A stretch of 48,572 nt of DNA. It comes from a virus (lineage: Duplodnaviria > Heunggongvirae > Uroviricota > Caudoviricetes). The translations under genes were made by a program, and so were the position numbers. The notes under the pieces were generated by a model. That model did not search any database. It was not told the DNA's origin and saw only the letters and a program-made list of their open reading frames with translations. The stretch lies in IMG/VR virus record IMGVR_UViG_2706794699_000012. One strand, 5' to 3'. Each line of letters opens with the position of its first letter. Within the stretch, counting starts at the first letter, position 1. Below, in pieces: positions 4,528 to 18,604 of this stretch.

Positions 4528-7500
4528 TCAACGAATACTGATGCCGGAAGCCGCTTTTTTGGTCACAATCACCGTACAGTCGGTGATATTGCCTGCCCCC
4601 TGATTGCCTTTCTGGAAAATCTTAAACTCCAGAGTGACGCTACCACCACCACTAGGCATATCAATAACTGCACTGTAACTACCGGGAATGGCACCTTTAG
4701 TTTCTCTGGATGCGATTAATACGCCGTTTTTGCGAACTTCAAAACCATAACCCGTGTATCGCGTGCCTCCCGGGTTATTTCCGCTCCCCGGATCGTCATA
4801 CGCTATACCGTTAAAAATAATGGGCGGAATAATAATCTGGCGGTCAAAGTTATGATCATCGCTGATGGTGACTGTAACCGTACCGTCTGGTGTTTCCGTG
4901 TTACCCCACGTACCGACTTTTTTCGGGAAGGCTTTTGATACAGCTTTAACGAAATCCCCTCTGACCTGGGTCGCCTCCAGCATGCCCTTAATCGTACAGT
5001 TCTGGTTAATCGTGACATTGTTGAGCGTTCCTGAGTTCGCATTCACACTACCACTGATATCCGCATTTTTAGCGGTCAGCTTTCCGTCTGATGTCAGGGA
5101 AAATACCGGAGGACTGCCACCGCTGGTAATGGCGGGGGCTGTCAGGCGCTTCAGGAACACGTCGTTCATGAATATCTGGTTGCCCTGCGCCACAAACATC
5201 GGCGTTTCATTCCCGTTTGCCGGGTCAATAAACGCGATACGATTGGCGGCAACCAGAAACTGGCTCAGCTTGCCTTCCTCCGTGTCCTCCATGCTGAGGC
5301 CAATACCCGCGACATAATGTTTGCCGTCTTTGGTCTGCTCAATTTTGACGCCCCACATCGCATTCCATTTATCGTTAGCGTCCTTCCACTCTTTCGAAAA
5401 CTCATCCAGTCTGCTGGCGTTATCCTCCGTCAGATCAACTTTTTCCAGCAGCTCTTTACCGAGATGGGATTCGGTTATCTTGCCTTTGAAAAAATCCAGG
5501 TAACCTTCCGCATCATCGCTCGCCCGACCGACGGCCTCCACGAATGCCGATTTGCCAACGGTGTTCACACTGCGGATATAAAAGTAATAATCATGGCCCG
5601 GTTTGATATTGATACTGGCGGCTATCCAGTACAGCCCCGCGCCAAGGTAGCGGGCTGTGGTTTCAACCTGCCTGATATCGGTAATCCGCGTTTCCGAGAA
5701 CCAGAACTCAAACTGTACCGTCGGATCATAAACCGCAAGATGCGGCGTGGCAGTTATCTGAAAATAGCCCGGCGTCAGCTCAATCCGCGACGGTGCTACC
5801 GGTGCGGCAATCCTGAACGATACCGACGCCGGATCGCCCTGCTGTCCCCAGGCATTTACCGCCCGGACTGTCAGCGTGTACCGTCCCAGCGCCAGTTGCG
5901 TGAAGCGGTATGTGGTTTCCGTCGTCCGGGCCGTGCTGACCAGCCGCTCACTGNNNNNNNNNNNNNNNNNNNNNNNNNNNNNNNNNNNNNNNNNNNNNNN
6001 NNNNNNNNNNNNNNNNNNNNNNNNNNNNNNNNNNNNNNNNNNNNNNNNNNNNNNNNNNNNNNNNNNNNNNNNNNNNNNNNNNNNNNNNNNNNNNNNNNNN
6101 NNNNNNNNNNNNNNNNNNNNNNNNNNNNNNNNNNNNNNNNNNNNNNNNNNNNNNNNNNNNNNNNNNNNNNNNNNNNNNNNNNNNNNNNNNNNNNNNNNNN
6201 NNNNNNNNNNNNNNNNNNNNNNNNNNNNNNNNNNNNNNNNNNNNNNNNNNNNNNNNNNNNNNNNNNNNNNNNNNNNNNNNNNNNNNNNNNNNNNNNNNNN
6301 NNNNNNNNNNNNNNNNNNNNNNNNNGCCGTCAGGAACACGGCTCACTTTCACCTTCACGCCGTCGGTGACGGACTGAACCTCCACGCTGACCGGATTGCC
6401 ACTTCCGTCAACCAGGCTTATCAGCATGGTACCGGAGGATGGCAGCGTGATTTCACGGTCGAGCGTCAGCGTCCGGGTCTGGCTGTTTACCGCCAGCACG
6501 CGCCCGCCGATGCTGATACCCGCATAGTCATCATCACAGATTTCAATGACATCGCCCGGCACATGGCGAAGCCCTTCTGCGCCCACGCTGAAGTCCACGG
6601 TCTGCGTTTCCAGCAGTTCTGTTTTAATCAGCCACAGCCCGGCGCGGTGTGCCTGCCCCCGGCTGGTACAGCCAAAAGCATCCATCTTCGTGACGTTACG
6701 ACCGTAACGGGCAATGGCCTGCGTATCCTCCACAAGCTCTGTCGCCGTCTCCCAGCCGTTATCCGGGTCAATCCAGTTCACCTCAACGGCATTATGGCGG
6801 TCTTTCAGGGCGCTGAAGCTGTAGCGGAACGGCGCGCCATCATCCGGCATCACCACATTACTGCGGTTATAGGTCCACACCTTATCCGACGGTCGGTCCT
6901 GCACGAACGTCAGCGTCTGCCCGTTCCATACCGGCATACAGCGCATCGCCGAGCAGAAATCACTGAGCACATCCCACGCCTTGCGCTGTGTGGTCAGGTA
7001 CGCATTACAGGTGATGCGCGGCTCCGTGCCGCCAAAGCCGTCCGGCACTGACTGGTCGCAGTACTGGCCGATGACATACAGCGCCCATTTGTCCACATCC
7101 GCCGCACCAAGACGTTTCCCCATGCCGTAGCGCGGGTGGGTCAGCATATCCCACAGACACCAGGCCATGTTGTTGCTGTATGCTGGTTTTAACGTTCCGT
7201 CCCAGATACCGCTGTATTGTCGCGTCTGCGGGTTATAGTTCGACGGCACCTGCAGAATGCGCCCGCGAAGATGATAATTACGACTCACCTGCTGGCTGCC
7301 GAACTGCTCCGAGTCCACCTGTACGCCGACCAGTGCAGTGTTCGGGTAGCACTGTTTCACATCGATGATTTCGGTGTATGACGACCAGAGCGTTTTGTTC
7401 TGCAGCTGGTCTGTGGTGCTGTCCGGTGTCATCCTGCGCATCCGGATACTGAACGGGCGCGGAGGCAGGTTATCCACCACCACCGAGACCAGATACTGCG

Positions 7501-8041: not shown

Positions 8042-8713
8042 TCAGCGACCAATCACCACAACCTGACCACCATCCCCTTCGTCTGCCGTGCTGATCTCCT
8101 GAGAAACCACACGTGACCCCACGCGCATTTCCCCGTACAGAACAGGCAGAACATTACCCTGGGCAACCATGTTATCCAGTGACGAGAAATACGTGTTCTG
8201 TTTGCCGTTATCTGTACTGGCTGCCGTGGGCGTCCTGGCTTTCGGTGCCAGCATCTGCGCCACACCACCCAGGATCATACTGGCCCCTGCTGCATACATA
8301 CCCGATACAGCCGCGGCCCCCAGCCAGCCCACAGGGTTCCACCATGCCACCGCAATCAGCGCCGCACCCAGCACCGCCTGAAACACACCGCCACTTTTGG
8401 CACCCGCCAGACGCGGAACGATGTGGATCACGGCACCATTTGCCAGCGGTTCATTAAGACGGGCAGATAATTCATTTTCGCCTGCATCACGCCCGGCAAT
8501 GCGCACCTGATACCAGCCGTCGCTCAGTTTCTGACGAAATGCCGGGAGCTGTGTGGCCAGTGCCCGGATGGCTTCGNNNNNNNNNNNNNNNNNNNNNNNN
8601 NNNNNNNNNNNNNNNNNNNNNNNNNNNNNNNNNNNNNNNNNNNNNNNNNNNNNNNNNNNNNNNNNNNNNNNNNNNNNNNNNNNNNNNNNNNNNNNNNNNN
8701 NNNNNNNNNNNNN
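8042..8713 (-). CDS. I: tail assembly protein I; 5' part lies in N block, start coordinate estimated
   Basis: Visible C-terminal part ...GVFQAVLGAALIAVAWWNPVGW...VLPVLYGEMRVGSRVV is lambda-I-like; upstream boundary inside 8577-8970 N run, estimated from lambda I length. Confidence 0.65.
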   Translation of the reverse strand, partial: XXXXXXXXXXXXXXXXXXXXXXXXXXXXXXXXXXXXXXXXXXXXXXEAIRALATQLPAFRQKLSDGWYQVRIAGRDAGENELSARLNEPLANGAVIHIVPRLAGAKSGGVFQAVLGAALIAVAWWNPVGWLGAAAVSGMYAAGASMILGGVAQMLAPKARTPTAASTDNGKQNTYFSSLDNMVAQGNVLPVLYGEMRVGSRVVSQEISTADEGDGGQVVVIGR

Positions 8714-8970
8714 NNNNNNNNNNNNNNNNNNNNNNNNNNNNNNNNNNNNNNNNNNNNNNNNNNNNNNNNNNNNNNNNNNNNNNNNNNNNNNNNNNNNNNN
8801 NNNNNNNNNNNNNNNNNNNNNNNNNNNNNNNNNNNNNNNNNNNNNNNNNNNNNNNNNNNNNNNNNNNNNNNNNNNNNNNNNNNNNNNNNNNNNNNNNNNN
8901 NNNNNNNNNNNNNNNNNNNNNNNNNNNNNNNNNNNNNNNNNNNNNNNNNNNNNNNNNNNNNNNNNNNNNN
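8577..8970. other. N-masked block (394 nt) covering the K/I junction
   Basis: Run of n characters. Confidence 1.
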
Positions 8971-10059: not shown

Positions 10060-10397
10060 CAGATCACCACTTCGTCAAACTGACACGAAAAATCGGTATA
10101 GGTGATATGTTCTGTCGCTGACCACGTTCGACACACCACTCTGATTTTTCTGTTAATACCCGGCGGGCGCCAAAAAAAAGATTTATAGCCTTCATGCCGG
10201 GCTAAAAATTTTTCAAATGAATCACGTTCATTCGCCTCAACTTTGAAATCACAGGTGAAAACGCGCAGAGAATGATTAAGTCCATTTGGACTTCGTTGCT
10301 CATAACCATCACCAAATCTTACAGTTTTTATCGATGGTTTATTTTCTGTTTTCATTCCATCCTCTGGTAACCAGTGAAATTCTTCCGTATTAGCCAC
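10059..10397 (-). CDS. M: minor tail protein M
   Basis: 112 aa, position between L and tape measure, overlapping start/stop with neighbours. Confidence 0.85.
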
Positions 10398-13300
10398 TTA
10401 ACATTCCCCCATCACGTCGCATATTTAACAGATTGCCCTGCACCCGCTGATCAACCATCCCCATAAGTGCTTTTATTGCCTGAGGGCCAATCTCTCCATT
10501 CTGGCCGTCATTTTGAATAGTGATTTGGTATACAGGGGCATAGGTAATATCTCCGCCTCCATTACCACTTTTACTATTAATAGCTCTGACACCAAGAGAA
10601 CCATCGGAAGTTCGTGTTAATGGCATAATGGCTTCCGGTCCAGCCTCACCAAAAACACCAGCCCCTTTTGCAAAAGCAAAAAATTGCGGGGAATCATAAA
10701 TACCGTTCGAATACGTGCTCAATGACGGAGACTCATAAACACCGCCCTTTGCATTCGGAATAAATTTACTAATAGCACTCCCGATAGTTCCTAAAATCCC
10801 CCCAGAAGAACTGTTACTAATGCTGTCGAAAATCCCAGTAATTGAAGCCTTTAATGCTATTCGACTAAGATCCGAAATCACGGAAGTAGCGAAAGAACGA
10901 AAATTTGCCTTGCCTGTCGTGACAAAATCACCCAGCGCATCGGTCATCCCATCAAACATCTGAGTCGTGGTTGATTTTATCTGCTCACTGATATCCTTAG
11001 TGTCATCCAGCCAGTTATTGAATCCCTGGGAGGCACCACTAACCCAGTCTCCTGCCTGAATATCGAGCTGCTCGTTTTTCTGTCTGACAATTTCTTTTTC
11101 CCGTTCCAGAGCATCATTCAGAGCCTGCATTTTCTCTTGAAAAACATGATCTGACATTCCACGGGATTTATCTGCATAGTCACGTTCAAGTTGCAGACGC
11201 TGATTGTTATATCCATGTTCAATCCGCAGTAATTCCTGCTGGCGTTGCTGATTTTTATCGCCAACCCCATAACCAGCAATCTGAATATCATACCCCTGCT
11301 GACGATTATCAATCGAAGCCTGCAATGAATCACGCCATGCTGTTATTTCGGCGGATTCCTTGATTAGCCTGTTATTTTTTTCAATCGCAACATTTTTCTC
11401 CATCAACGTGGTTATTTCTTCCCGGTGTAAGAGAAGCGATTTCTGATCCTGGGTTAATTTCGATGATGGTCGTGACTCTAGGTCGGCAATCCGCTGACGC
11501 CACTTAACCAGTTCCTGTTCAGAGGAACTTAATTTAACGGTCAACTCAGCTTGTGAACTTAGTAACGCATTCTGTTGATTCAGATGATCAATCATTCGTT
11601 GGGCTGCATCATCAGAATAACCTTTCGCCTTTGGTTGCTTTGGATCTTTATAACGCTCATTTATTTGAGCGATAAGATTATTATATTCTTCCTTTGAATA
11701 CTGATTCTTTAGCTTTTCCAGTTTTGCAAGTTCACTAGCTCTCTGCTGCTCCCGGGTCTGATATTGTTTTGAAAAGGCATCTGCTCTCTGTCTGAGTTCA
11801 ATTCCTTCCTGTTGTCGCTTGTTGTAATCGTTTATTGATGAATTTAGTACGTCCTGAGCAATTTTTTCTGCTTGAAGTACGCCCAATTGCTGCTTTAATC
11901 GTGCCAGCCTTTTATTTTGAGCTCCGCCATCTCCAATGCCACCTAACCCGAAAACTCCGGGTCGGGTATTTTTTTCTATTTCATCAATTTGACGGAGAAC
12001 ATCTGAGATTTTTTGATCAAGGGAGGCCTCACGGCCAATATCCAGCATGGAATCCCATGCCCATTTTGCGGAGTCTGCGACAGCTTTCCATGCAGTCTCA
12101 AGATAACCAAGATTTTCTTTAATCTGGTTGGTGCGCTGGATCATTGAGGATGAGTATTCTTCTGTCGCAATGCGGGCGGCCTCCTGCTGGTTCCCTTCAT
12201 CCTGTAGCGCCTTAATCTGGTTATAAGTCGCAAGTGTCAGAAAATGGTACTGATCATTAAGTTTTGATATGGCACTGACAGGATCCTTTGCAATTTCATT
12301 GAAGTCATTAACCAGTTGTTCGGTTGATATTCCTGTTACTTCGCTCGTTTTTACTATCGCTGTCGTCACTTGCTCCAGCGAACTGCTCGCTACCTTTCCC
12401 GAACGCACAAGCTGATTTAATACTGCCGCCGCAGCACCAGTTGTCGAATCAGCCGCATTCCCGGCACGTTGAGCTATATCGCCCAATTGCCCGCTGGTTG
12501 TCCCCAACTGATTTCCGGTAAGAATAAGAGATTTATTAAATTCGTCCTGCTCCTGAGAGCCTTTATAGTAAGCCAGTCCTAAGACCCCAACGGCTGCTGC
12601 GGCCAGGGTAAAAGGATTAATTAATCCCAGCACATAAGAACCTACACCTTTGATCGCCGGGCCAATCCCACCGAACATATCTTTTAGCTGGCCGCCCTGC
12701 TGCATTAACACCATAAATGGCGACTGACCAGTGGACAACCCAACAACAATATCCGTCATTTGTACAGGCAACATGCGCATAGCAAAAGCCGTTTGTTTTG
12801 CCGACATTCCGGTTTTGCTTAATTGTGATTGAGTAACCTCAAGCTCACTCCGCATAGCACGAAGTTTTCCAGAAAGCTCCTCATACATTTCAGGAGAAAG
12901 CATCCCCTTAGCTTTTGCTTCATTGAGCTGTTTCTGTTGTTCTACCAGACGATTAAAAGCAGTTCCGACAGGATCAAGTTGAGCAATCAGACGTTGCAAA
13001 GCAACAACCTGTTCATCATGCGCTTTTGCTGCTTCTCGCTCTGCCTGAGCCTCTCCGGTAAGCTCTCGCCGTGTTTCCTGTATTTTTCGGCTATAATTCT
13101 CAAACTGAGAACCATTTATTTTCCCGGATGCAAACGCAGCATTAAGTTCATCATGCTGTTGTTCAAGATTTCTTAGCGCCGCAGCCAGAGGGTCGATCTT
13201 GTCCAGCATTCTTTGAAAGGCCTGAGCCTGCGCTTCCTGCTGGGCGGCAGCAAGTTTTCCGGCCTTCTCGGCTTCTCTCTGCGCTTGCGCAACCCCGCTC

Positions 13301-13623
13301 AATTCCTCTGTGGTTTCATTAAGTTTACGGACAAGAAATTCATATTCTTCTTTATCAATAAGCCCTTTATCGAAAAATTTCTTTAATTCAGAATAGCGTC
13401 GACCGACAGTATCAATTGCGGCACCAACTGGATCAATAGCTGCTTTTAATTTTGCGAGCGCGTTCTTCTCATCTTCTGTTGCCTTAGTCACTTTCCCTGC
13501 GCTATTTGCAGCAGTTTCCCCAGCCTGCGTCATTTTGACTAATGAGGAGGTCAGATTGTCAGCATTATTTTTCGCTCCAGTGCTATCAATAATTATTGCG
13601 AGACGCGAGGTTTGCTCTGCCAT
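10390..13623 (-). CDS. tail tape measure protein
   Basis: 1077 aa, coiled-coil-rich N-terminal half, Gly/hydrophobic segment in the middle, located between G/GT and M. Confidence 0.88.
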
Positions 13624-13646
13624 TTATTAAAACTCCTGACAACAAA

Positions 13647-13668
13647 AAACCCACCGCGAAGTGGGTTT
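13647..13668 (-). terminator. hairpin with U-run between GT and tape-measure genes (attenuator-like)
   Basis: Stem aaacccac (13647-13654) / gtgggttt (13661-13668), loop cgcgaa, U-run on the minus strand; lies 24 nt upstream of the tape-measure start. Confidence 0.4.
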
Positions 13669-13788
13669 CAGGCGACATAATAGTAGATATAGCGATTACG
13701 AGGCCACGCAATGCTTTTCTCCAGGAGCATCATCGATTTAATTAAAGACACCATCACATCTCTGTAACAGAGTGTACGTAATTAACAA

Positions 13789-14558
13789 CTACACACACTG
13801 CTCCTGAAAATACTGGTCATCCAGTGCAAAGATCACTGCTTCAAATTCATCGCGCTCAATCAATACCGGATGAGTGGCTAAATATTCATTTATCTCTGTC
13901 AGAGATAAAGGCAAAGGCACCCCAGCCATTCCAGCATAACGTCGGGCACGGGATATTACCGAATAGGCGTACAACAACTCCTTAAGCACCGGGTCTATTT
14001 CTGGTTCCGGTATCGGTGGCAACCTGAGTTTTTCTCGCTTCCATCTTGCCTTTTCCCCCCTTTCTCCCCCGAACTCCGATAACCACCGCTGGGCAGCTAT
14101 GGCTTTTTTATCGTATCCTGCTTCTGCTGCTCTTTACCCTGGGCGATGCTGGCTGCTTCTGCAAGGATCTGCCAGTACAACTCTGGATTCTGCTTAAGCA
14201 GCGCGATCCCTCGTTCTGCCGTATATTCCAGTGCAACCTCAACACCATTAACCAGTTCACCAACCCCTTTCCAGTCTTTCAGCAGATAACGAGCGGCATT
14301 ATCAATGAGTAAATCATCAACAGAATCCACCTCGGAAACCTTTGAAATATCAAACTCCTTCGTTCCGACGTGCAAACTGGCATCCATTTTCTCAATGTGG
14401 CGACGGATTAATGCATTACGGGAGCGATACTGATCGTTATCGCTGCTTGCCACCAACAGTTTTAACCCGTCTACAGGTTTTAAGTCCTTCATTGGCGTAA
14501 ACCAGCGTTCTCCACCAATGATAATTTTCTGATTAAGAATAAACATCCATAACCTCAT
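13789..14558 (-). CDS. tail assembly chaperone fusion (lambda GT analogue) made by programmed -1 frameshift
   Basis: The -1 frame stays open from the slippery site through the 13789..14022 ORF; my hand translation after the shift reads KKAIAAQRWLSEFGGERGEKARWKREKLRLPPIPEPEID... Confidence 0.7.
14097..14558 (-). CDS. tail assembly chaperone (lambda G analogue)
   Basis: 153-aa acidic protein immediately upstream of tape measure; ends ...DTIKKP with the slippery heptamer at its 3' end. Confidence 0.75.
   Translation of the reverse strand: MRLWMFILNQKIIIGGERWFTPMKDLKPVDGLKLLVASSDNDQYRSRNALIRRHIEKMDASLHVGTKEFDISKVSEVDSVDDLLIDNAARYLLKDWKGVGELVNGVEVALEYTAERGIALLKQNPELYWQILAEAASIAQGKEQQKQDTIKKP
14103..14109 (-). 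promoter_or_regulatory. -1 ribosomal frameshift slippery heptamer A-AAA-AAG
   Basis: Minus-strand mRNA reads AUA AAA AAG CCA UAG; plus-strand bases 14104-14109 are tttttt and 14103 is c. Confidence 0.75.
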
Positions 14559-14606: not shown

Positions 14607-15569
14607 TCAACTAATCGCCTCAGCACTGGCTTTTGCGATCACGGCAGCCGGGGAATTTTTTTTTCTGGTTATCGTAGGTGCTTCATCTGCTGCGGTAATG
14701 CTCAATTGAACCTGGATAATGTCGCTATTACCCCCATCAGGCCATTCACCTGACACCTGAACCTTCGGGAAACTGAAAGTGTATGCCCCCTCTCCATTCG
14801 AAAGCGTGAAGCTGAACGGAACTGTTTCTCCAGTCAGTGTTTTACTCCAGATTTCCCACGCGGCTTTAGACCATGAAAGCGTCACCGTACCGGACGGTGT
14901 AAAAGTAGTCGGAATATTTGCTCCTGCATAAGGCGAGCCAGTCCCGATACAACGCTGTGTCTGGAGTTTGTTATCGAACTGAATATCAAAACTGTCGATA
15001 CAAAAACCGTTACCTCCGGCAACACCATTCAGGCTTACTGCTGAAACCTCCTTAAACGAATAACGTAGCTTTCCTGCACTATCCACAGGTTCGCCTTTGA
15101 TAAAATTCGTATCATCGGCCTTTGATTCCCAGTCCAGTCCGGCAAAGGTTACGGTCGCTGTAATATCGCCGTCGTTAGGGATCTGCATTTTCCATGAGCC
15201 AACCTGCGCTCCTCTGACGACAGAGGCAATTCCGACATCGGACGCATAGGTCGCCAGAGAAAATGTTATTCGCTCATTCCCCATTGTCAGAGAATCGCCT
15301 GACCATTCCGCGCCGAAACAGGATGCAAGAAAATCATCATGTTGACCCCAGCGAAATTTGGTACCAACATCACCGCCGACATCCACAGTGCCAGGCGTCG
15401 CCCCCTGAGCCATCCGGGAGCCACCAATCTCATTATTTTCGCCTTTATTCTGGGTGGGTTTTACTCCCCAGCTTGTGCGTTTTAATAAACTCCAGTCACC
15501 ACTTGCTGGCGTAGTGCCTGCAACCGTCTCCCGGATAAATGCCGAGATAACCTTTGCACCTGAACTCAC
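14607..15569 (-). CDS. major tail (tube) protein
   Basis: 320 aa, directly upstream of the chaperone pair; GTG start preceded by AGGAGG. Confidence 0.7.
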   Translation of the reverse strand: MSSGAKVISAFIRETVAGTTPASGDWSLLKRTSWGVKPTQNKGENNEIGGSRMAQGATPGTVDVGGDVGTKFRWGQHDDFLASCFGAEWSGDSLTMGNERITFSLATYASDVGIASVVRGAQVGSWKMQIPNDGDITATVTFAGLDWESKADDTNFIKGEPVDSAGKLRYSFKEVSAVSLNGVAGGNGFCIDSFDIQFDNKLQTQRCIGTGSPYAGANIPTTFTPSGTVTLSWSKAAWEIWSKTLTGETVPFSFTLSNGEGAYTFSFPKVQVSGEWPDGGNSDIIQVQLSITAADEAPTITRKKNSPAAVIAKASAEAIS

Positions 15570-16365: not shown

Positions 16366-16749
16366 TTACGCTCTCCTTAACTGGATAGAGTAAACTGATG
16401 CGGAAGGATCTACACTTGCTGTAATTACCTCGTATCGTTGTAACTGCCTTGATACAGGATCATAAATCTCAATAATATGGTCGACAGCTGGTTTATCCGT
16501 AACCTCGCATACCAGAGCGGTTAATTTAAGGTCACCATGCAAAATATTAATCCCATCAATTCTGCCCAGCTTATAACGTGTCAACACGCCTCGCCCGGTA
16601 TAGATTGCGGTTGATTCGCCGCCAGTTTCCGTCACAGGATCCCAGTGCCGGTGCGTAACGTAAGAACCAGAAAAATCACTCACGGCGTCCGCTAAATCCT
16701 CATCAAAAGCAGCGGCAACCTCTGACTGAATCTCTTCACGAAGCCCCAT
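16366..16749 (-). CDS. head-tail joining protein (by position)
   Basis: 127-aa ORF in the connector block. Confidence 0.45.
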   Translation of the reverse strand: MGLREEIQSEVAAAFDEDLADAVSDFSGSYVTHRHWDPVTETGGESTAIYTGRGVLTRYKLGRIDGINILHGDLKLTALVCEVTDKPAVDHIIEIYDPVSRQLQRYEVITASVDPSASVYSIQLRRA

Positions 16750-17144
16750 TATCCCCCCCTCACAACCCTGACTTGTGAGCGACTAAGTCCGTACGGTTTC
16801 AGCAGTGCTATCGCAAGCTGTAAATCGGGTTCAAGCAATGCAGTGCTGTTTGCTGGCAACTCAGAAAATGATTTCGATACACTGACCCCGTCAGCCGACA
16901 CGGCTTTACTGATAACAACGCCAGAATCATTTTTCTGCTGAAACAACTTACCGAATGAGGCAATTCTGGCTGCATATGCTCCCGCAAGTTTTACCTCTTC
17001 CGGAATACGGGATGGGTTAATTTTCAGGTTGAAGCCATTAAGCCAGGCATTAGCCATTAAAACAGCTTTATTTTTAGCGTTCTCACTCGTCCAGGCGTTC
17101 CCAAACGCATTATCAACGTCATCACAGGTCACGTAAGTGATCAT
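16749..17144 (-). CDS. head-tail connector / adaptor protein (by position)
   Basis: 131-aa ORF; upstream AGGAG; first gene after capsid region. Confidence 0.45.
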   Translation of the reverse strand: MITYVTCDDVDNAFGNAWTSENAKNKAVLMANAWLNGFNLKINPSRIPEEVKLAGAYAARIASFGKLFQQKNDSGVVISKAVSADGVSVSKSFSELPANSTALLEPDLQLAIALLKPYGLSRSQVRVVRGG

Positions 17145-17366: not shown

Positions 17367-18506
17367 TTAACCAAGAATCAGACAACCATGTGCCGGCTTC
17401 ACTGATGAAACACCCCATGCCAGTCCAACTTCATAGCGCACCTGGCGATACTGACGATACAGTGCAATCTGGAACGTAATCCCTGAAATCGGGTCCGTAA
17501 CATTCATTACATCATCAGCATTATCGCCACCTTCCGGCATTGCCGGAGTACGGGATGCCAGCAGAAACGCGTTGCGATCAAACGCCATATTTGCAGTAAA
17601 GGCCCCAACAACTGTGATGGCAGTATCATCGGCCAGATCCTGACGCAGTCCGGGCGCTGCAAGAGTAATCAGATTGCTGGTCGCTGCTGCCACAACATAC
17701 TGATTCGGATCACCAGCGAACGTAACAATCTGACCTGCAGAAATACTCCCCGAACCAGTATCAATGGAAATAAGAACATCGCCTTCTTTTTTCTCTCCAT
17801 TCACGAGATAACCAGTTGCAGCAACCTTTGGCGCTCGTTTCACACCTGCCGAACTGTGAATATTGAATCCCTCCAGACGCCCCAACACGCCCTCACGCAG
17901 TAGCTGTTCAGTGCCGGATTCATTCACTTTAAACAATACAGACTGTTTTCCGCGCAAATTAGCAATGGCAGTGGAGCCAAGCACCATCTGCAGATCGGTT
18001 GTCGGTGCGCCGTTATCCTCCAGAACCTGACGAGCCAGAGCAGCATCAGAAAGATCATCTTTAACACCAAACGGCGTTGTCCCTGCGGTTCCCACGGCGC
18101 GGGAAGCACCGAAATACAACGCACCAAGATCAGCCTCAACCTCGTTTGCAAGGGCGCGAAAAGCCTGCTTGAACTGATCAGCCAGAATGGTGTTGTAAGT
18201 CCCTGAAGGGCCAAGAGCCAGTTGTTCTTCACCATTCCATTTAACCGGTGCCATTTTGGATTTAGTAATTTTTACATCAACAGTGCCAATATTTTGATCA
18301 CCGGTATTCGGAGCTGACGGCCCCGGTACGATATCTTCGGTTTTCGCCTCAGGCGCAACTGGCGCGGTTACCGTCTGATCTTTTGCTGCGGCGTCAGCTT
18401 TTGCGTTTTTTGCTACCGCAGGGATAAAACCTACCTGCTCACGGGATACAACATCCAGGGCGGTATAAATAGTCGGGATCAACCCGGTCAGGGTATTTCC
18501 AGCCAT
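17367..18506 (-). CDS. major capsid protein
   Basis: Internal ATG at 18506 (MAGNTLTGL...) preceded by AAGGAA; about 380 aa; follows scaffold gene. Confidence 0.75.
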   Translation of the reverse strand: MAGNTLTGLIPTIYTALDVVSREQVGFIPAVAKNAKADAAAKDQTVTAPVAPEAKTEDIVPGPSAPNTGDQNIGTVDVKITKSKMAPVKWNGEEQLALGPSGTYNTILADQFKQAFRALANEVEADLGALYFGASRAVGTAGTTPFGVKDDLSDAALARQVLEDNGAPTTDLQMVLGSTAIANLRGKQSVLFKVNESGTEQLLREGVLGRLEGFNIHSSAGVKRAPKVAATGYLVNGEKKEGDVLISIDTGSGSISAGQIVTFAGDPNQYVVAAATSNLITLAAPGLRQDLADDTAITVVGAFTANMAFDRNAFLLASRTPAMPEGGDNADDVMNVTDPISGITFQIALYRQYRQVRYEVGLAWGVSSVKPAHGCLILG

Positions 18507-18604
18507 AATTAAATATTCCTTAAAAATTTGCGTAATTGTGAATAGATGGAGTAATGAGCTATCCAGCCCTGACACCAGCTCCCATCCGGAAGCTGACAAA
18601 TGTG

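Follow-up and report, generated by a model that had tools for sequence, protein, structure and literature searches.

An unannotated, likely programmed -1 frameshift in the tail assembly chaperone pair of a Rac-type lambdoid prophage

Downstream of a putative tail assembly chaperone gene, on the minus strand of the 48,572-nucleotide stretch of viral DNA analyzed here (the window), lies a small open reading frame at 13789..14022 that has no obvious initiation signal. Is this a gene in its own right, or is it the distal end of the chaperone, reached by ribosomes that slip back by one base shortly before the chaperone stop codon, as happens at the G and T genes of phage lambda? The sequence-only reading of the window had favored the second possibility. 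Our own analysis points the same way: on the sequence evidence, we consider it about 90% probable that a programmed ribosomal -1 frameshift joins the two frames, referred to below as G and T, into a fusion protein. What remains is shared between the rival explanations weighed below and a shift that does occur, but too seldom to be of consequence.

The chaperone pair and its slippery heptamer

The minus-strand gene order is capsid (17367-18599), head-tail connector genes, tail tube, G, T and tape measure. The immediate upstream neighbor of the pair is the tail tube (major tail) gene at 14607..15569 (PF18906, E 9e-32), and the downstream neighbor is the tape measure gene at 10390..13623 (PF06791, PF09718), such that the pair occupies the position between tail tube and tape measure that is looked for in a G/GT pair. 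Further downstream, the long minus-strand distal-tail open reading frames are broken by runs of N at 484-794, 5954-6325 and 8577-8970, which are masked or unassembled. The G-like open reading frame, known as ydaY, spans 14097..14546 on the minus strand, encodes 149 amino acids (16.9 kDa) and ends in a TAG at 14099-14097. The longest version of this frame begins at ATG 14558 (14097..14558), but the true start is almost certainly ATG 14546 and ATG 14558 is unlikely, because the N-terminus is conserved from ATG 14546, a GAGG Shine-Dalgarno (SD) sequence is located 6 nt upstream of it (14556-14553), and GenBank records of phages use it. The T-like segment, in the -1 frame, covers 13789..14103 on the same strand and consists of 104 codons plus a stop at 13791-13789, with a predicted product that runs AIAAQRWLSEFGG...DDQYFQEQCV. 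Taken together, the conceptual GT coding region (13789..14546, minus strand, with a -1 shift at 14103) would encode a fusion of 252 amino acids and 28.7 kDa, and its predicted junction peptide, ...QQKQDTIKKAIAAQRWLSE, would place the shift on the second of two lysine codons.

G by itself matches PHROG 313, "tail assembly chaperone", with an E value of 4e-46 over profile positions 13-149 of 258, and the conceptual fusion matches the same profile at 8e-51 over positions 20-246, continuously across the junction. The fusion also aligns to phrog_8233 across the junction, T alone matches phrog_1189, and T scores 21 bits against PF23812 (Phage_TAC_18), which is under the cut-off of 27. No match to the G part was found in local Pfam or NCBIfam, and all database homologues of G (proteins P0001-P0120) carry a precomputed match to PF27119.1. 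A search by sequence for solved structures of the chaperone returned no match. By predicted structure (a model of moderate confidence, pLDDT 74.9, one of five), there is a match to the HK97-type tail assembly chaperone PDB 2ob9, a protein linked to a "conserved spiral structure" by Pell et al. 2013, as cited in PMC5313236, but it is below usual significance and at 8% identity. The locus is the tail-assembly-chaperone pair of a Rac-type lambdoid siphovirus prophage, and the earlier assignment of a G/GT-type chaperone pair is backed by its position, the PHROG 313 family, the relative frame, the conservation of the slip site and the coding signal.

The end of G reads, in the 0 frame of the minus strand, CAG GAT ACG followed by ATA (14111-14109), AAA (14108-14106), AAG (14105-14103), CCA (14102-14100) and TAG (14099-14097). 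Both direct reading and scripted translation therefore confirm the proposed slippery heptamer A AAA AAG at 14103..14109 (14109..14103 as read) and its phase, X XXY YYZ, within the G/T overlap. The heptamer had been described as lying a few codons before the stop; it is indeed close to the end of G, but just one codon (CCA) intervenes, compared with five in lambda. The script shows an open -1 frame that begins at 14133, just past a TAA at 14136-14134, and continues as far as its stop at 13791-13789, and the 13789..14022 open reading frame is in this same -1 frame with no stop between it and the heptamer, as the hand translation behind the earlier claim had indicated. The G frame and the -1 frame are both open only in the interval 14100..14133 on the minus strand, 34 nt with about 11 in-phase positions, and a productive shift is possible only there. 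After a slip at the heptamer, the next codon is GCC (14103-14101).

How often would such a site arise by chance? The sequence AAAAAAG is itself common, with 25 occurrences on both strands of the window, against an expected 14.8 +/- 4.1. Within long open reading frames, A AAA AAG is in phase at 3 of 13,006 codon positions, and the three heptamers that shift best in E. coli (A AAA AAG, G GGA AAG and C CCA AAG) are together in phase 4 times. With the N runs excluded from these in-phase counts, the probability that one of the top three heptamers would land by chance in the 11-codon overlap is approximately 0.003, and that of any strict X XXY YYZ doing so is approximately 0.05. Only two in-phase strict heptamers in long open reading frames are followed by a -1 extension of more than about 35 codons, and A AAA AAG at 14109..14103, with its 104 codons, is one of them. 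The other long extension is at 16752-16758, where two genes overlap in the ordinary way. There, the open reading frame 16749..17144 has an in-phase G GGG GGA at its extreme end (16749-16758, minus strand), and the gene that follows (16366..16749) uses the -1 frame. Since the ATG of this downstream gene overlaps the stop, ordinary translational coupling is enough to account for the arrangement.

The junction in about 220 related loci

Homologous loci were gathered by a tblastn search of phage records with the fusion, by scans of IMG/VR with the G part and with Pseudomonas-type and Acinetobacter-type fusions, and by a scan of one genome per species with five enterobacterial sequences. This yielded 10 loci from phage records, 80 from IMG/VR, 17 from species-level genomes, 23 of the Pseudomonas type and 80 of the Acinetobacter type; one further Pseudomonas-type locus gave a weak match only and was left unscored. 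The collection of about 220 loci spans Escherichia, Shigella, Citrobacter, Klebsiella, Raoultella, Siccibacter, Dryocola, Serratia, Pectobacterium, Pantoea, Tatumella, Erwinia, Pseudomonas and Acinetobacter. The homologue of T occupies the -1 frame with respect to G in every locus examined, and in all of them the junction falls in a single alignment column, a lysine AAG codon preceded by A. This lysine is one of 12 invariant columns in an alignment reaching down to 26% identity. Both the frame relation and the slip site have therefore been conserved despite divergence.

At the nucleotide level, A AAA AAG is kept in 80/80 Escherichia-type IMG/VR loci (77-100% identity), with flanking synonymous positions varying around it. 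Other genera have G GGA AAG, the heptamer of lambda, at the same place, and the third base of the preceding valine codon covaries with the switch (GTA AAA AAG versus GTG GGA AAG). Nearest-neighbor relations imply at least two independent switches of heptamer, one in Raoultella, a member of the Klebsiella clade at 79% identity to the Klebsiella phage type, and one in Siccibacter, which falls within the Serratia/Pantoea clade. The G stop is found 0, 1, 7, 20, 26, 29 or 35 codons past the site, with the site itself fixed, indicating that the stop is not the conserved element. Not all relatives have a perfect heptamer. Loci resembling that of Pseudomonas phiPSA1 (L112-L135) carry the non-canonical G GAA AAG in 23/23 scored cases at 61-100% identity; Erwinia phage Gungnir39 has C GCA AAG followed at once by TAA; and in a Pectobacterium prophage the site reads G GGG AAG, a single synonymous difference from the G GGA AAG of a Serratia copy to which it is 97% identical. 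These imperfect heptamers indicate that a perfect tandem-slip site is not strictly required.

Several copies have changed close to the junction. Within the linker of T, the purine tract GGGGGAGAAAGGGGGGAAAAGG (14049-14070, minus strand) shows substitutions and single-base insertions and deletions among near-identical IMG/VR copies, and in one of these copies (L048) the indels cut the -1 frame to 37 codons. In E. coli, a 240-amino acid protein (P0001, five member sequences) is a constitutive in-frame G-T fusion that results from a 35-nt deletion between 10-bp direct repeats, GCAGAAGCAG, located just 5' of the heptamer (14153-14162 and 14118-14127, minus strand). Such an allele would give GT without free G and is probably tail-defective.

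How T is translated and rival explanations

If T is reached only by frameshifting, its coding signal should be visible as soon as the heptamer has been passed. Among 14 diverse relatives, aligned over the 80 nt past the heptamer, the mean pairwise differences at the first, second and third positions of the -1 frame are 0.26, 0.24 and 0.55, respectively, and this periodicity is already visible in the first 24 nt. No ATG, GTG or TTG occurs in the -1 frame until 14-58 codons past the site, depending on the relative. The first such codon in the window is a TTG 27 codons past the site (14022), so that a 34-nt overlap in the -1 frame is combined with a T that has no initiation signal of its own, as expected of a G/GT pair. 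A coding signal that starts exactly at the heptamer without an initiation codon argues for a programmed frameshift, and is not predicted if T is an independent gene.

The alternative in which T is nonetheless an independent gene translated from an internal start, with the heptamer incidental, has some backing in current annotation, as PGAP and two phage submissions call a separate T "hypothetical protein" of 186, 201 or 234 nt, with PGAP starting at TTG 14022 (the 13789..14022 frame) and the GenBank submissions at TTG or GTG, and the 77-amino acid open reading frame from the TTG does exist. However, these three annotations disagree on the start, and TTG 14022 has no SD. Furthermore, the 27 codons between the heptamer and the TTG are conserved as -1-frame protein (W155, L156, E158, F159 and G161, among others, are invariant in A2) and show third-position periodicity, whereas the first possible start in Raoultella and in one Pantoea is 58 codons past the site, and Acinetobacter has no -1-frame start codon within 60 codons. 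We therefore regard an internal start as very improbable, and the claim that the downstream frame is not an independent gene stands, given the -1-frame coding signal 3' of the heptamer and the lack of a start codon.

The joining of G and T could conceivably take place in the transcript, if RNA polymerase stuttered on the run of A and added one, leaving some mRNAs that encode G-T in a single frame. There are six consecutive A at the site (14109-14104) and poly-A tracts can support transcriptional slippage (PMC3711429, PMC5009743), but according to the same reviews efficient slippage needs longer runs, of more than seven A. In relatives whose site reads G GGA AAG, G GAA AAG or C GCA AAG, the run is down to three or four A, yet the -1 architecture is unchanged. 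The conserved element is a heptamer in codon phase that ends in AAG, not a homopolymer, leaving polymerase stutter with even less to recommend it than an internal start. Finally, G and T might be a single gene broken by mutation or by a homopolymer sequencing error, as in the pseudogenes of a decaying prophage, or T might be non-functional and the heptamer there by chance. The locus is indeed found in prophages; in K-12 the Rac copy is clearly a remnant, in which ydaY has lost its 5' end and the tape measure gene is cut short, and the T frame is truncated in a few IMG/VR copies. Nevertheless, about 220 loci, isolated phages among them, share this -1 relation and this site across at least 12 genera and an identity range of 26-100%, the -1-frame coding periodicity is retained, and the low chance probability of the heptamer given above also stands against it. 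The comparative data effectively refute this last reading, which we rate the least probable of all.

Mechanism, known systems and the meaning for ydaY

With a programmed ribosomal frameshift as the preferred reading, we infer the slip itself, its efficiency and the binding partners of its products from the anatomy, phase, open frame, conservation and coding signal observed above. Most ribosomes would translate from ATG 14546 to the TAG at 14097 and release the 149-amino acid chaperone. In a small fraction, the tRNA-Lys molecules on AAA in the P site and AAG in the A site would re-pair one base back, on AAA AAA. The only tRNA-Lys of E. coli (mnm5s2UUU) pairs weakly with AAG. The slipped ribosomes would then read GCC AUA GCU and onward in the -1 frame to 13789, producing the 252-amino acid G-T fusion that ends in the T domain. 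By analogy with lambda, the G parts of both proteins would coat the tape measure protein, and the rare T domain would recruit the tube protein.

The slip would rest essentially on the heptamer, with no strong RNA stimulator. The downstream stimulatory structure that had been suggested as a check was not found by folding, by a consensus of relatives or in Rfam: the 53 or 103 nt 3' of the heptamer fold no better than shuffled sequence (z = +0.39 and +0.31), the RNAalifold consensus of 14 diverse relatives reaches -2 kcal/mol with no compensatory pairs, and no frameshift element in Rfam was matched. Upstream, an SD-like AGGA (14116..14119, minus strand) is located 6 nt from the heptamer. It is a possible but weak stimulator, since it is present in about 10 of 16 diverse relatives and is confounded with the Gln-Asp/Glu codons of which it forms part. 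The site therefore appears to act alone, like that of lambda. A AAA AAG and G GGA AAG both rank among the top three heptamers for shifting in E. coli (PMC5009743, PMC4066793), and the three best heptamers of the form V_VVA_AAG yield about 0.3% when no stimulator is present and up to about 3.7% where the 3' context is favorable (PMC4066793), with tail-chaperone sites assayed in E. coli at 6-7% (PMC3711429). By comparison with these values, the yield at the present site should be low, roughly 0.3-5%, and it may be well under 1% because there is no downstream stimulatory structure.

The programmed -1 frameshift at lambda G/G-T was described by Levin, Hendrix & Casjens 1993 and by Xu, Hendrix & Duda 2004, 2013, 2014, in work summarized in PMC5009743, from which we also take that G and GT are made in a ratio of about 30:1, that the G part binds the tape measure protein and the T part the tube protein, and that neither is present in the virion. 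In the lambda genome (NC_001416), G has 140 amino acids, G GGA AAG lies five codons before its stop, the overlap is 61 nt and GT has 279 amino acids. The likeness to the present locus is extensive. Both pairs are situated between the major tail and tape measure genes, both have a short upstream frame (149 amino acids here versus 140) overlapped in the -1 frame by a downstream frame without its own start, both have, close to the G stop, a heptamer that ends in A AAG, neither requires an RNA structure, and the fusions are of similar size (252 amino acids predicted here versus 279); in addition, several close relatives of this locus carry the exact G GGA AAG of lambda. There are also differences. 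The heptamer here is A AAA AAG and is separated from the stop by one codon instead of five, the T part has 104 amino acids compared with 144, and T is separated from the tape measure gene by a 165-nt gap with a terminator-like hairpin, whereas T of lambda overlaps H. Moreover, the frameshift is experimentally proven in lambda and predicted here. A family profile of 8 sequences compared with lambda GT by hhalign gave a probability of 0.08, no detectable similarity, and the locus is therefore an architectural analogue of lambda G/T and not a member of the same sequence family.

A true, if distant, homologue is found in Acinetobacter phage vB_AbaS_TRS1 (NC_031098, TRS1_18/TRS1_19), at approximately 26-39% identity and with a tblastn E value of 4e-6 for its T part. 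Its -1 architecture is the same, with the junction at the same column on the lysine AAG, but it uses G GGA AAG and its G stop is 26 codons downstream. In GenBank this pair is annotated as a joined -1 coding sequence, the length of which fits a slip at G GGA AAG, indicating that the frameshift has already been recognized within the wider family. The heptamer itself is identical to that of E. coli dnaX, the gamma/tau gene, which operates with the same shift-prone tRNA-Lys in the same host (PMC3711429, PMC5009743). At dnaX, an SD-like element on the 5' side and a hairpin on the 3' side accompany the heptamer, and the shift efficiency is about 50% (PMC3711429). At the present site, in contrast, no hairpin is detectable or conserved and there is just the doubtful AGGA 6 nt upstream; the dnaX combination of a downstream stem-loop with an SD-like element about 10 nt upstream was not found at this locus.

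The gap between the T stop and the tape-measure start (13624-13788) has features of its own. It folds better than shuffled sequence (z = -2.3), and just 5' of the tape-measure SD it contains the terminator-like hairpin at 13646-13669 on the minus strand, GAAACCCAC TTCG ... GTGGGTTTT, followed by TTGTTG. In Klebsiella, Pseudomonas and Acinetobacter relatives, extra small genes occupy this gap, and for this reason it may serve for the insertion of morons or as a point where expression is controlled.

The DNA shares 100% identity with Salmonella phage SPF_0923. Among 5,426 complete E. coli genomes, about 1,075 carry the module. K-12 is one of them, with its Rac remnant, in which a 5'-truncated ydaY is followed by the heptamer, T and the truncated tape measure gene ynaA. 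RefSeq names the G part "protein YdaY" and leaves the T part as "hypothetical protein" or uncalled. PGAP/RefSeq often gives ydaY as 360 nt (119 amino acids), even in intact prophages (compare 14097-14546 in the window, and 1745-2104 in locus L003), with the conserved start, ATG 14546 in the window, located 90 nt upstream; this call appears to be the spread of the 5'-truncated K-12 Rac form. A frameshift annotation is absent from every record of the close family (Escherichia, Klebsiella and Citrobacter), and RefSeq never has it. No account of frameshifting at ydaY or Rac was found in the literature searched. The locus is an unannotated member of the lambda G/GT class, real and ordinary, of a kind that is well understood in phages and not surprising to a specialist.

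Reading ydaY and the adjoining "hypothetical protein" as one recoded gene would correct the annotation of a very common E. coli prophage module: as a single frameshifted chaperone gene, the pair gives ydaY a function and removes a spurious open reading frame. It would also supply a further family on which predictors of frameshifting, PRFect (PMC10885494) for example, could be trained and tested. In the covarying exchange of A AAA AAG and G GGA AAG, selection on a slippery heptamer is cleanly visible by comparison; the known mechanism is left unchanged. Across the whole family, the only invariant of the slip site is the A-site tetramer A_AAG with its lysine, and the half in the P site varies, being A AA, G GG, G GA, C GC or G GG(G). 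Because Pseudomonas keeps G GAA AAG, and because the 0-frame stop of some relatives comes directly after AAG, one could speculate that slippage of the A-site tRNA-Lys alone is enough, and that evolution adjusts G:GT in different hosts, as if by a dial, through the codon in the P site and the spacing between site and stop. This is a reading that we would sooner doubt than adopt. If true, the chaperone family would offer a natural series of alleles in which to study the tuning of frameshift efficiency.
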